Positions 52,050 through 57,479 of a stretch of DNA of 64,000 nucleotides are shown here, piece after piece; within the stretch, counting starts at the first letter, position 1; each line of letters opens with the position of its first letter. The DNA comes from Candidatus Binatia bacterium (GTDB lineage: Bacteria > Desulfobacterota > Binatia > UBA9968 > JAJDTQ01), in contig OY762897.2 of NCBI GenBank assembly GCA_963666515.2, forward strand, positions 2,048,001 to 2,112,000, in the 5' to 3' direction. The translations under genes were made by a program, and so were the position numbers. The notes under the pieces are model-generated. The model searched no databases. It saw nothing but the letters and a program-made list of their open reading frames with translations, and had not been told where the DNA came from.

Positions 52050-52176
52050 GGTATCGTGGCTCGACTAGAATCCTTGATCGACAGGATCTTGACTCAGGAA
52101 GACAAGATATTTGAACTGGACTTCGTTCGTACATGAATACTATCGTAGGCCATCGCGAGTTGTAACGCTCGGTAGT

Positions 52177-53784
52177 TTAAGCGACGAGCTTCGCCTCATC
52201 GCAAATGGCATCGAGGTTCCTGGTGATGGCGGCAAAGCGCCGATGGGTCTTGGTATTGCCGCTCACGGCGTCGGGCGCAAGATGGGCCAGGCCGGGGCGA
52301 AGGATGCGGTTGTAGACACGCGTGTAGAACATCGCCACCTTGAGGCCGTGTTCGGTCAAGTGGTAGCGGTAGGCGCCGGGGATGCGCTCGATCAGGCCGT
52401 GCAGGCGCAGGCGTCTCAGGTCGTAACTCATTCGGCCCGGGCGCATTGGACTGGGATCGAGGCCCAGGAGTGCACCGAGGTGCCCGCGCAGGTCGCGGTT
52501 GGAGAAGCCGCGGGCCGAAAGAGTGAACAAGAGCAGGGCCTGCATCAGAGCCTGCACGCGCTCATCGGCGAAGCGCAGGGCCGAGGCGCGTTGTCCGTGG
52601 AACTCCAGGCCGCGTTGATGGCGTTGGAGTTCGTCTTCACCCAGGGCACAGTCGTGGCTGATGGTTTCTATCTGCAACAGACGACGGTTGGCTGTGAAGC
52701 CGACCTGGCACAACGCCGCCAGGTTAGACAGCCGCCGGCCCAGGGCGAAGTCATAGGTGTCGTTGACGGTGGTCTCGGTGCGCAGCGCCTGCCCTTCCTT
52801 GTGGTACTGCTTGATGCGCGAGTGCTTGTAGTCCACGTGCAAGGAAGGGGTGACGCCTGCGGTGATGACCCGGGTACGGAACCGACCGGGGGTGCGCCGG
52901 GTGACCCGGCGCTGGAAGATCAACTGCACCTGGCTGGGGCGACCGAGATCGAGGTTCTCGCGGATCACGTCCTCGAAAAAGACGCGGCCCGAGGCCGGGC
53001 GGTCGAGCACCTGGGTCAGGCTGAACTCCGCTTGCAGGATGGAGATGTCGTAGCGCAGACCGGCGCGACGGTCCTGAGGCGTATACGGATGCGGCAGGCG
53101 ATCGAACCACTTGCGCGCCAGTCTGTCGATGAAAGCGGCATCGAAGCCTTCGCAGATCTGTTGCAGCGCCTCGGGGTCTCCGCAGCAGCGCACGCCGTTG
53201 TCCAAAGCCTCGAACGGGATGCCGCGCTCGCGCAACTGGCACTTGGCGTACTCGTTGCCGTTGAGGCACAGCTTGCCGTTGTACGGGAAGTAGGTGCAGA
53301 ACTTGATGAAGAACGGCCCCGCCTGTTTGTCCACGCAATAGAAATACACATGGTTGACCATCGCGGTAGACGAGACCACCCACGGATAGGTGACCCCGGT
53401 GTCCGGGTTCCGGCGCCGCTCGGTGCGCATCACACGGGCCTTCTCCTGCGCTATCCCGATGTACAAAACCCCTTCGGTTCCCTTGAACCGCCCCAGGTAC
53501 TCCTGCGTCACCTCGTCCTTGCGCTGGCCCTTCTTGAAGTGCACCACCTCGATCTGCTCCCGCTCCGCAAAGTCCTTCACCGCCTGCACGAACTCCCGAC
53601 TCTTGGGCGCCAGCGCCACCGTCGACGCAAACCGCTGGCCATGGTGCTTGTGCAGATACCCCACTACCCCGCCCACGCTCTGCAACTGCGGCACATACAG
53701 GTTCAAGTACAGGCGATCCACCGACTCGTATTCCAGCGTCACGTGATCGCGCAATACTTCCGCTACGGTTTGTGGTAGGCTCAT
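52177..53784 (-). CDS. Putative transposase/replication-initiator-like protein with C-terminal winged HTH
   Basis: Start MSLPQTVAEVL (ATG 53784, GGAG RBS); ILQAEFS, IKQYHKEG..LRTETT (Rep_trans-like YxK...RxE), GFSNRDLR...YDLRRLRLHGLIERIP..RYHLT wHTH. Confidence 0.7.
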   Translation of the reverse strand: MSLPQTVAEVLRDHVTLEYESVDRLYLNLYVPQLQSVGGVVGYLHKHHGQRFASTVALAPKSREFVQAVKDFAEREQIEVVHFKKGQRKDEVTQEYLGRFKGTEGVLYIGIAQEKARVMRTERRRNPDTGVTYPWVVSSTAMVNHVYFYCVDKQAGPFFIKFCTYFPYNGKLCLNGNEYAKCQLRERGIPFEALDNGVRCCGDPEALQQICEGFDAAFIDRLARKWFDRLPHPYTPQDRRAGLRYDISILQAEFSLTQVLDRPASGRVFFEDVIRENLDLGRPSQVQLIFQRRVTRRTPGRFRTRVITAGVTPSLHVDYKHSRIKQYHKEGQALRTETTVNDTYDFALGRRLSNLAALCQVGFTANRRLLQIETISHDCALGEDELQRHQRGLEFHGQRASALRFADERVQALMQALLLFTLSARGFSNRDLRGHLGALLGLDPSPMRPGRMSYDLRRLRLHGLIERIPGAYRYHLTEHGLKVAMFYTRVYNRILRPGLAHLAPDAVSGNTKTHRRFAAITRNLDAICDEAKLVA

Positions 53785-53788
53785 GTCC

Positions 53789-53892
53789 GGCTCCGGTTGC
53801 TTCGGGCTTTTATGCCCATTTGACCCTTTGAGGTCCGACCTTGCAAGGTCCCATGACCAGGGATTCAATCCCTGCTACAAGCGACCGGAGCC
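53789..53892 (-). ncRNA. Candidate structured 5' leader RNA (or ssDNA structure) of the putative transposase
   Basis: 14-bp outer stem 53789-53802/53879-53892 enclosing four hairpins. Confidence 0.45.
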
Positions 53893-54094
53893 AATCCCCT
53901 TACCCCCTCGTCGGTCTGAGGCGAAGCCTCGCTAGTCGTCGGCAGCGCCGCGGATTGCTTGCCCGGAAAACCGCGGCATGATTTGATCGTAGCAGGTCGA
54001 GGCGGTCGAGACGCTAGTCGCCGTGGCCGCGAAGAGGATTCCTAAAGAGTGCTGGGGAAAGGGTAGCGGCCGTGCATGAAACAGGGAGGCGGCG

Positions 54095-55600: not shown

Positions 55601-57353
55601 CCGGCCCCGTTGCCGTACAGGTGCTCCACGACCCGTTCGAGAGTCTCGCGCTTCGCCCTTTTCTTCACCAACCGCTCGACTTCCTCCATTTCCTGGGGTG
55701 ACGGCAACGGCAGTGCTTCCATCTCGTAGGCCGAGACGGCCACGCTACCGTTGATGCACCGGAATACCTGGTCGACGACGTGACTGTTCAAGAGGGCTGC
55801 CAACGCCGCCGGCGCCACCTTCGGGGTGTCGTCAAGCGGTTTGATCATGTTCAAGTGATTCTCGACGACAACCGCACCGTACTCGTCCATAAACGGCTCG
55901 GGCAGTTCCACCGCGATCAAACGCCGGCATTGCTCCTTGGCCGTCGTCCTTTGCAACAGCACGCACGGTGATCCGTCACGACCCAGGTCTCGTTTGCGTT
56001 CGGCTCAAAATAGGGTTTGTGGTTTCGCTTGTCCGCCCTGAACTCGAACACGCCATCGGACCGTACGGATTCAGCCCAGATCAAAGGATAGCGTCCCTTT
56101 CCCGGTCGGTCCCGCAGGCTCTCCTTGTGGCGGTTCCACACCAGTGGTCCCGTACTGACCGTGTAACCGTAGTCCGCCAACCGATGGGGCATCTCGTCAA
56201 CCCGCCGTACCAGCGCGTCTTGTGCTTCCTTCCTGGGCATCAGCCACGGATGGTCCACGGTCTCGGGCAAGTTGAACGAGCCTGTGGGGTTCGTCTCGAT
56301 ACAGCCGTCTGGTTCCGGTGTGACGAAATGCACCTCTCCGGCTGTTGGATCCCCTCCGTGTCGGTAGGTTGCCAAGAGCGTTTCCTGCAGCACGTTGGCG
56401 AACACGCCCTTGCGTGCTCCGATGAAATCAATCCTCACCGGCGGCGCTTCCCGTCCCAGCAATCCGCGTAGCGCCTTGAAATACTCCCCGGCCAGGAAAC
56501 TCGTCGGGGTCACGAAAGCAATGATCCCGCCCGGCCGCGAGAAACGGAGCGCCAAGTCCGTGAACACGCCGTACAGGTTCGCATGGCCGAACAGGCTACG
56601 CCGATATTTCTTGCGCAACCACGACGACAGCGTGATGCGCCCGTAGGGCGGATTCCCCACCACCAAATCGAACCCTTCTTCCCCCGGCATCTGGTCGAGA
56701 CTGTCGCACACACGCACGACGGACCGAAGCCGGATGCCTGGTTCGCCGTACAGTCCACCGAGCGTCACATCGAGAAACACCTGCGACATCCAAGCCGCAA
56801 ACGGGTCCAGCTCGAACCCGATCAAGCGACGTTGTATGTCCCTCAGAGCAGCATTGGCGCTGCGGTCCTTGAGGCATTCCGCCATGCGCCGGGCCACCGG
56901 AGACAAGAAGGCGCCCCCGCCACAAGCCGGGTCCAGCACCCGGGCCGAAAGCCAGTCGACGCCGGCGTACGTCGCCATATCCAACAGCCGCTCGCACAGT
57001 GCTGGCGGGGTGTAGTACGCGCCCAACTGCGCCCGGAACGTGCTGGGCATCATCCCGGTGTAAAGCGTTCCGATCATGTAGCCGGTGTCCGCGACATCCA
57101 ACTCGGAAGCCGCCGTCCCGATGCTTTCCGCCAACTCCGCTGCTTCCTCTGAGACCGCAGGAAGCTCTATCTCGGACGGGACGTTGCGGAGTGCCCAACC
57201 TCGACCGGACACCGCATCGACGTGCGTCCAGTAAGCGGAGATTGCGCCGAAGACGACCGCCCGCGCGAAGTCCAATCGGGCTTCGCCGGTGACCGACGAC
57301 GCCAGTGTCCGGGCGCTCGACGATAGATGCTCAACCATCGACCGGGCTGACAT
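55597..57353 (-). pseudogene. N6-adenine DNA methyltransferase (PstI/BsuBI/Eco57I-M type) with a frameshift at ~55967
   Basis: LGAYYTPP, VLDPACGGGAFL, VVGNPPYG, HANLYG, PTSFL, TGPLVWNR; C-terminal CVLLQRTTAKEQ..VENHLN..GSVAVSAYE lies in another frame; start codon uncertain. Confidence 0.8.
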
Positions 57354-57479
57354 TGCCGGATCCCTCTCTCCGTTCGCCGCCAAATTCACCACCCCCGTCG
57401 TCACGATGCCTCGGGTCCCGTATTCAACCGCCGGACCTGTCTCTCCCGGATAACACATGCACCCGACGGGTTCCTTGGG

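Follow-up and report, generated by a model that had tools for sequence, protein, structure and literature searches.

A recently active insertion sequence with CTA junctions in a Candidatus Binatia bacterium, and its putative Rep_trans-like tyrosine nuclease

We analyzed a 64,000-nucleotide stretch of contig OY762897.2 of a Candidatus Binatia bacterium (hereafter the window) and found that a 1,871-bp unit, bounded by CTAG at 52065-52068 and 53932-53935 and carrying its open reading frame (ORF) on the minus strand, is a genuine, recently active insertion sequence (IS), of which the 4.67-Mb genome holds nine copies, all 100% identical. Its sole gene most likely encodes a predicted tyrosine nuclease/transferase, distantly related to the Rep_trans replication initiators, with a C-terminal winged-helix DNA-binding domain. 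The explanation that we favor, with measured confidence, is that the element belongs to an uncatalogued IS superfamily whose transposase is a Rep_trans-like tyrosine nuclease, which would nick DNA 3' of CTA.

Results

Nine identical copies and an empty site

All nine copies have CTAG at both ends, immediately beyond which identity is lost, the flanks being unrelated; the tetranucleotide itself is strongly depleted in the genome (1,197 sites vs 14,762 expected from base composition). Evidence of insertion is provided by the copy at 1.796 Mb: in the closest relative (G008, same genus), where the flanks are 96% identical, both flanks are joined through a single CTAG, and insertion therefore adds 1,867 bp of net DNA. 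The initial annotation, made from the sequence alone, had proposed an IS-like mobile element and had suggested a genome search for extra copies and empty sites; the nine copies and the single-CTAG site in G008 bear this proposal out. The coordinates that it gave for the unit, the CTAG ends and three hairpins were all confirmed, as was the single ORF. Likewise, no inverted repeat joins the two termini among the 25 longest of the 157 inverted pairs, so that the unit lacks terminal inverted repeats, as claimed.

Of the remaining insertion sites, those of the window copy and of a second copy (L007) have flanks with no usable counterpart in G008, and the flank of a third (L009) has no counterpart among 27 genomes of the same genus. 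The protein was absent from all 40 related genomes searched, 24 of them from the same genus. At the level of the phylum, matches at E<=1e-30 were obtained in 15 of 401 genomes, the source genome included, in a scan that scored three candidates per genome and hence gives no copy numbers.

Public sequencing data of the same organism label agree with a multicopy element: in four runs (X1-X4; X1 and X4 are other runs of the same study as X2, and X3 is a second run of the X2 sample), the contig carrying the element has 8-10 times the depth of its flanks. The left filled junction of the window copy was recovered in X1, X3 and X4, and the right one also in X1; in X2, a contig bridges this site without the element. 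We regard mobility and copy number as demonstrated by these observations.

A copy in Cupriavidus (L092, 970-1042 and 2859-3446) lies within about 660 bp that are missing from two related genomes; it may have inserted into another insertion or moved together with one.

CTA is the constant feature of the junctions

We then defined the ends of the family from copies within seven multi-copy genomes. On the ORF strand (a slash marks the boundary), the elements start with flank/CTA-A-C-GAGGC-NNN-GCCTC-AGACCGACGAG and finish with ...TCAAG-(4-5 nt)-CTA/G, and CTA marks the two junctions of copies in multi-copy genomes from five phyla. Among 63 elements examined for the 5' motif, 54 carry it, and the four bases that precede CGRGG read CTAA in 48 of these, CCAG in four, TTAG in one and CTAG in one, the latter being the window element. 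At the other end, 56 of the 62 related loci have a CTAG located 47-64 nt past the ORF match, one copy (L098) reading CTAA at this place; the window element has a longer 3' region (112 nt). The constant junction feature across the family is thus CTA and not CTAG, and the window element seems CTAG-bounded because its first base is a G. The initial annotation had taken CTAG as the boundary, which does not extend to the homologues, their ends showing CTA followed at the 5' side by A rather than G.

Nor does the 10-bp palindrome CGACTAGTCG, proposed as the target because it is restored when the unit is removed, hold as a target rule: it is particular to the window site, and the other eight sites share CTAG only, plus a one-base preference. 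Indeed, a T follows CTAG on the ORF strand (an A precedes the left CTAG in window orientation) at seven of the nine sites, compared to a background of about 20% (binomial, about 3e-4). This preference was not apparent in the flanks of the relatives, which were looked over rather than counted.

The subterminal hairpins fared better. Compensatory changes maintain the 5' hairpin across phyla: in the 30 elements compared, which come from many phyla, all 150 stem cells pair (23-57% in slid controls), double compensatory changes are seen in two of the five base pairs, and the loop is variable. In four of the 30 elements, from Actinomycetota and Acidobacteriota, one base pair of the stem, A-T or G-C, covaries with a position located 3 nt past the stem (window 53929, 53919 and 53915), which is A with A-T and C with G-C; this third-position covariation may reflect a protein-read or tertiary contact, or shared descent. 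At the 3' end, an alignment of 32 sequences revealed two near-invariant boxes, CTTG(A/T)C... and TCAAG, followed by 4-5 nt and then CTA.

Two rearranged 3' ends were noted. In L090 (2775-2893), the last 44 bp are tandemly duplicated, the duplication being bounded by an internal CTA at the stop codon and by the terminal CTA; this single case fits an enzyme acting at CTA sites. L045 (2700-3003) carries a 150-bp 3' duplication joined 2-3 nt before CTA, a joint that CTA cutting does not explain.

In sum, instead of single-copy homologues devoid of conserved boundaries and empty sites, the outcome that the initial annotation had named as fatal to its proposal, we observed multi-copy genomes, conserved CTA junctions and the empty site of G008.

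A large protein family without a catalogued transposase model

The 535-residue protein has no match in Pfam, NCBIfam, PHROGs, PADLOC or PDB sequences other than a weak C-terminal winged helix. The Pfam and NCBIfam results uphold the earlier statement that no catalogued transposase model recognizes it, and weak matches near residues 425-490 support the winged helix-turn-helix (wHTH) that had been noticed there. When PDB sequences were searched with the profile of the full protein or of residues 160-350, only wHTH regulators and chance matches were returned, and neither RepDE nor RepSTK1 was matched. Models of DDE, DEDD and HUH transposases and of serine and tyrosine recombinases gave no match either (27 of 27 diverse homologues checked with Pfam). 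In these 27 homologues, D23, R24, Q113, E114, Y147, N175, N196, Q251, E253, K325, Y327, R335 and Y454 are invariant, and no His or Ser is conserved, which makes HUH enzymes and serine recombinases unlikely.

The family is large. Homologous clusters number at least 8,000 at 90% identity; at 50% identity there are 10,355 with E<=1e-3, of which 1,214 reach E<=1e-30. The homologues that bear a name are called 'hypothetical protein', and most are found on 1.8-2.9-kb contigs, as is typical of repeats at which assemblies break. The 80 loci that we fetched belong to Proteobacteria, Acidobacteriota, Actinomycetota, Verrucomicrobiota, Chloroflexota, Gemmatimonadota, Planctomycetota, Armatimonadota, Spirochaetota and Myxococcota; a tblastn search against phages gave no match at E<=1.

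A further clade (L123:1432-2949, minus strand; L157:1423-3058), with only 27% identity to the first, comprises 505-residue proteins annotated as ArsR family regulators and forms an element of about 1.64 kb; thousands of relatives lie on contigs of about 1.6-2 kb. Two copies, in different Paraburkholderia genomes, share 1,639 bp, a stretch that starts with CTA/A directly followed by a small hairpin and finishes with ...CTA/A. This clade probably represents a sister family of IS whose proteins have been mislabelled as regulators and, as it displays the same anatomy, the CTA rule seems old.

One segment of the protein resembles Rep_trans initiators

The initial annotation had suggested a Rep_trans-type transposase. 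To the extent covered by the parts of the articles available, Rep_trans proteins are characterized by a conserved D (motif N'), R-x-D (I), T/S-x-Y/E-x-G (II), Y-x-K-x-x-E (III) and W/L-x-R-x-E (IV), with three acidic metal ligands and a Tyr carried by a beta-strand (PMC5714925, PMC4797284). We compared 40 family members with 59 Rep_trans proteins using hhalign. Residues 184-236 aligned with the Rep_trans motif I strand and the next helix with a score of 32.1 (P 0.0041), compared to 14.3 for the reversed control and at most 21.9 in 40 block shuffles; in bits, the match reached 15.7, while the best of 20,282 unrelated six-frame genome ORFs reached 11.6. With a sub-profile restricted to residues 165-240, the best four of 20,350 sequences were Rep_trans proteins (12.9-19.5 bits; best unrelated ORF, 7.9). 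The motif I strand that marks the Rep_trans superfamily (R-x-D, with a metal-binding Asp) is found in this segment. At the level of sequence profiles, the similarity of one segment of the protein to Rep_trans is therefore established.

A second hhalign match, colinear with the first, places K325-x-Y327-x-K329 on R-I-Y-D-K and R335-x-E337 on R-x-E, but with a P of 0.41 it is not significant. In the 27 homologues, K325, Y327 and R335 are invariant and K329 and E337 at least 90% conserved. The order D23, D195, Y327-x-K329, R335-x-E337 matches the order N', I, III, IV given in the articles cited above. Hence, of the earlier suggestion, the resemblance of residues 165-240 and the order of the motifs stood, whereas the Pfam model remained unmatched and the alignment of the QYHK...LRTE region was not significant. 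We consider it reasonably probable that the protein belongs to a wider superfamily that comprises Rep_trans and the archaeal Rep-Arvir initiators; by the Pfam criterion, it is not a Rep_trans member.

A structured leader

In the family, the region between the 5' end and the ATG spans 150-250 nt and contains conserved helices. In the window element, the GGAG ribosome-binding site is covered by a long-range stem, the arms of which are 53789-53802 and 53879-53892. Over 22 leaders, 85.9% of the cells pair, compared to 29-45% when the sequences are slid, and double changes affect 16 of the 30 pairs; the structure was drawn from the same sequences as those used to score pairing, which favors it. Rfam gave only two sub-threshold chance matches. 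A sigma-70 promoter scan of the linear element found no site, and no convincing junction promoter was seen by eye. Translational damping is common in IS elements, and the structured leader, by pairing with the ribosome-binding site, probably keeps translation low; we prefer this reading to that of a guide RNA because the target consists of only 4-5 bases.

A model of transposition and its alternatives

The junctions, i.e. a CTA/G target, CTA/A or CTA/G at the 5' side and CTA at the end of the element, are those expected from a strand-specific nuclease that cuts 3' of CTA. In the model that we favor, the enzyme would recognize the hairpin beside the 5' end as well as the 3' boxes. On the ORF strand, it would make a nick directly 3' of CTA at two places, the left junction and the CTA that terminates the element. 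Y327 would become transiently linked to the 5' phosphate, with a metal held by D23, D195 and/or E253, and E337; Rep_trans enzymes are described, in the available parts of PMC5714925 and PMC13107129, as attaching to the 5' phosphate and leaving a free 3'-OH. The nicked strand would then be moved into a target CTA/G, either as a single-strand circle (peel-and-paste) or by IS91-like rolling-circle displacement, and the complementary strand would be copied afterwards. The product would be flank-CTA, the element ending in CTA, and G-flank, an arrangement that mimics a CTAG duplication where the first base of the element is a G. Under this model the element proper would extend from 52066 to 53932. 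Its fold, catalytic residues, single-strand chemistry, polarity and dimer are what we infer.

Several observations weigh against this model. With respect to the enzyme, the Pfam Rep_trans model (PF02486) had no match at E<=10 in the whole genome, including the nine ORF copies, and none at E<=1 in the 27 homologues; a first hhalign comparison with five Rep_trans proteins, drawn from four of the 401 genomes of the phylum, was insignificant (Prob 0.4%). The significant similarity spans only about 55-75 of the 535 residues, the Arg of motif I is absent and D195 is replaced in four of the 27 homologues. A sub-profile of residues 296-350, which include the Tyr motif, brought no Rep_trans protein into the top eight matches, and sub-profiles of residues 1-60, 100-182 and 240-300 retrieved none. 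With respect to the DNA, a contig of run X2 joins the flanks of the window copy without the element (52066/53935) and reads CT-C-G, not CTAG, an empty allele that the CTA model does not explain; it could be an untargetable strain allele or a footprint. No circle junction was found in the contigs of the four runs, in which rare forms cannot be judged. Two elements (L059 and L088) alter the TCAAG box without compensation, so that a 3' stem is doubtful, and the 3' boxes may be protein sites instead. Finally, with the replication origin placed near 3.75 Mb and the terminus near 1.4 Mb by GC skew, the ORF is co-directional with replication in six of the nine copies, a small number, and in another genome (G046:C9) a single skew domain contains two oppositely oriented copies separated by 110 kb. 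As orientation is not strict, obligatory lagging-strand targeting of the IS608 type is unlikely; we find it more plausible that duplex DNA is nicked where a hairpin is extruded.

The lack of strict strand bias, together with CTA at both junctions and in the target, asymmetric ends devoid of terminal inverted repeats and a Rep_trans resemblance confined to one short segment, would also suit conservative site-specific recombination of double-stranded DNA, in which an excised circle recombines through a CTA or TA core with a CTAG target, as in IS110 or IS607; the protein would then have a new or unrecognized fold and its likeness to Rep_trans would be local or misleading. We regard this as improbable, though it deserves more attention than the alternatives below: DEDD, serine and tyrosine recombinase models are unmatched, the protein has neither an invariant serine nor the C-terminal pattern of tyrosine recombinases, no junction promoter is evident, and a compensated hairpin at a distance of 2 nt from the junction suggests a site that is strand-specific and read through its structure. 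The apparent duplication of CTAG raises another option, an unusual DDE-type (RNase H-fold) transposase making staggered cuts at CTAG and duplicating 2-4 bp. IS5 and IS630 are classical examples of elements that target CTAG and produce short duplications, and three of the invariant residues, D23, E114 and E253, are acidic. IS5-type CTAG repeats are also mentioned in the available part of PMC9241763. Yet the element has no terminal inverted repeats, DDE models match none of the 27 homologues, and the 'duplication' is asymmetric, one side reading CTA-A and the opposite side CTA-G in a constant orientation relative to the ORF, which leaves this explanation quite unlikely.

Two further proposals, to both of which we give very little credence, concern the role of the ORF and that of the leader. 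Since relatives of the protein are annotated as ArsR/MarR regulators and standard models recognize the wHTH alone, the ORF could be a winged-helix regulator or a passenger, the element being moved in trans by an enzyme of the host or of another mobile element, for instance Xer-like recombinases acting on the hairpins. This sits poorly with a sole gene that occupies 86% of the element, with the co-conservation of the ORF and both end sequences in at least eight phyla, with the invariant polar residues held by some 400 residues beyond the wHTH, and with a genome in which no solo ends or ORF-less derivatives occur. Alternatively, the leader could act as a guide steering the protein to donor and target: it is conserved, structured and supported by covariation, and the bridge RNAs of IS110 elements occupy the same position, upstream of the ORF. 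But a target reduced to CTAG plus one base, with flanks otherwise unrelated, has no need for programmable recognition, the main helix covers the ribosome-binding site as in ordinary translational control, and neither an Rfam match nor a promoter was found.

Features of the element and its surroundings

The features of the element are listed in Table 1. It lies between a small unassigned ORF and a gene for a solute-binding protein. Two kilobases away, the window contains a gene (55917-57458, minus strand) for a 513-residue Eco57I-type N6-adenine DNA methylase. Elsewhere in the same genome, a decayed relic of a related element (C1:2645461-2645643, loci L010/L011) consists of two adjoining fragments, 90-92% identical to element positions 1273-1365 and 1692-1784; its joint (53428 to 53756 in window coordinates) is also present in the contigs of all four sequencing runs. 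A second contig of the assembly (C2; 5,333 bp, 64% G+C) carries no copy of the element.

Table 1. Coordinates, in the window, of the element and its parts
Feature	Position	Strand	Remarks
Whole repeat unit	52065..53935	-	1,871 bp; nine copies 100% identical over positions 1-1871
3' non-coding end	52066..52176	-	Family boxes and two hairpins; terminal CTA 52066-52068; 52065 would be the target G
3'-end hairpin ATCCT/AGGAT	52070-74/52083-87	-	Letters checked
3'-end hairpin ATCTTG/CAAGAT	52086-91/52103-08	-	Letters checked
ORF, putative transposase	52177-53784	-	Sole long ORF of the unit; 535 residues from ATG, 563 from an upstream TTG
C-terminal winged helix-turn-helix	52315..52512	-	About residues 425-490; weak matches to AbiEi_4, HTH_27, HTH_12 and MarR-type PDB chains
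Candidate catalytic Tyr motif, K325-x-Y327-x-K329 ... R335-x-E337	52774..52812	-	Tyr codon 52804-52806
Rep_trans motif I-like segment (R-L-D-L-A-I-D-N strand and helix), residues 165-240	53065..53292	-	D195 aligns with the motif I aspartate
D23 codon, candidate N' aspartate (putative metal ligand)	53716..53718	-	Invariant in 27/27; equivalence suggested by motif order
5' leader with conserved helices	53785..53932	-	Inverted repeat, and pairing over 22 leaders
5' subterminal hairpin GAGGC-GAA-GCCTC	53918..53930	-	5-bp stem, 3-nt loop; starts 2 nt inside the junction
5' junction CTA	53933..53935	-	Target DNA under the model; nick predicted between it and base 53932

Discussion

Novelty and significance

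We found no published description of the element's family in the literature on new IS or transposase families or, by title, with its terminal-sequence strings, and no Rep_trans-type transposase among the top-ranked titles on Rep_trans combined with transposase or insertion sequence. The homes of Rep_trans proteins given in the accessible text of PMC5714925 and PMC13107129 are plasmids, phages and conjugative elements, with no transposon role mentioned there; the part of PMC9241763 available to us refers to ISMysh03 as an unclassified mycobacterial IS. Transposases are classed by their chemistry (DDE, DEDD, HUH, serine or tyrosine recombinase), and an IS of Rep_trans type would add a class. Whether we are dealing with such a class, in which a non-HUH TBP-fold (Rep_trans/Rep-Arvir-type) tyrosine nuclease would drive a compact and abundant superfamily of CTA-cutting IS and link bacterial Rep_trans to archaeal Rep-Arvir, is a question on which we find the arguments evenly balanced.

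If the answer is positive, both known kinds of rolling-circle initiators, and not HUH enzymes alone, have been recruited for transposition, and the superfamily ranks among the more abundant IS groups of soil and water bacteria, annotated everywhere as 'hypothetical' or 'ArsR regulator'. Thousands of genomes carry such elements unannotated or mislabelled as regulators, and these are therefore missed by IS counts, pseudogene calls and explanations of assembly breaks. Such a compact enzyme, which would cut and join DNA at sites of 3-4 bases next to a small hairpin, is also a potential tool for manipulating DNA.

Comparison with known systems

Among replication initiators, the protein resembles Rep_trans proteins and MOBT relaxases (pT181 RepC/RepD, the Rep of CTX-phi and inoviruses, NicK of ICEBs1) by the motif I strand and helix at residues 165-240, by an N-terminal invariant Asp and candidate K/R-x-Y-x-K and R-x-E motifs in the order N', III, IV, by a helix-turn-helix DNA-binding domain placed after the presumed catalytic part and by a hairpin beside the presumed nick. 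It differs from them in being some 150-200 residues longer, with large insertions, in lacking the motif I Arg and a Pfam match, and in being encoded by a 1.9-kb multicopy chromosomal element with two defined ends rather than by a plasmid, a phage or an integrative and conjugative element. A parallel in architecture is offered by Rep-Arvir (DUF7845, PF25227), the initiators of archaeal pleolipoviruses and plasmids, whose relation to Rep_trans escapes standard sequence models and was found by structure only, according to the available part of PMC13107129. As described there, Rep-Arvir has an N-terminal catalytic part of about 300 residues followed by a MarR-like wHTH, and a nearby DNA hairpin that is essential; the spacing of its E25, D207, Y283 and E303, compared by description, recalls that of D23, D195 or E253, Y327 and E337 (PMC13107129). 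By contrast, DUF7845 is unmatched at E<=1, and our element is bacterial and transposable, not a replicon.

With respect to transposable elements, the likeness to IS5 and IS630 stops at the CTAG target and the short apparent duplication, these IS having terminal inverted repeats and a DDE transposase and our element neither. IS110 also lacks terminal inverted repeats, has a short core common to junction and target, and has a long structured non-coding leader upstream of the ORF, but no DEDD or Transposase_20 match was obtained here, the target is only 4-5 bp long and the flanks are unrelated. Like our element, the IS200/IS605 family (IS608, ISDra2) lacks terminal inverted repeats, has a subterminal hairpin at each end and inserts 3' of a short fixed sequence identical to the one at its own end, with no need for a true duplication; this is a similarity of working in outline and not of membership. 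In IS608, the left cleavage site belongs to the target and the right one forms the end of the element, a layout that the CTA junction rule parallels. The differences are the lack of a match to the HUH Y1 transposase (Y1_Tnp), a length of 535 residues compared to about 150, two hairpins that differ from each other and the lack of strict replication-strand bias. As for IS91/ISCR, the common points are, from the available text of PMC5714925, the absence of terminal inverted repeats, distinct ori-like and ter-like ends, a short specific target beside one end and a rolling-circle logic involving a Rep-related tyrosine enzyme; unlike these HUH Y2 Rep elements, ours has no HUH motif, no Y2_Tnp match and a CTA(G) target, and no read-through captures were seen. 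The element thus works most like IS200/IS605 and IS91, yet it fails the test that defines them, the possession of an HUH transposase.

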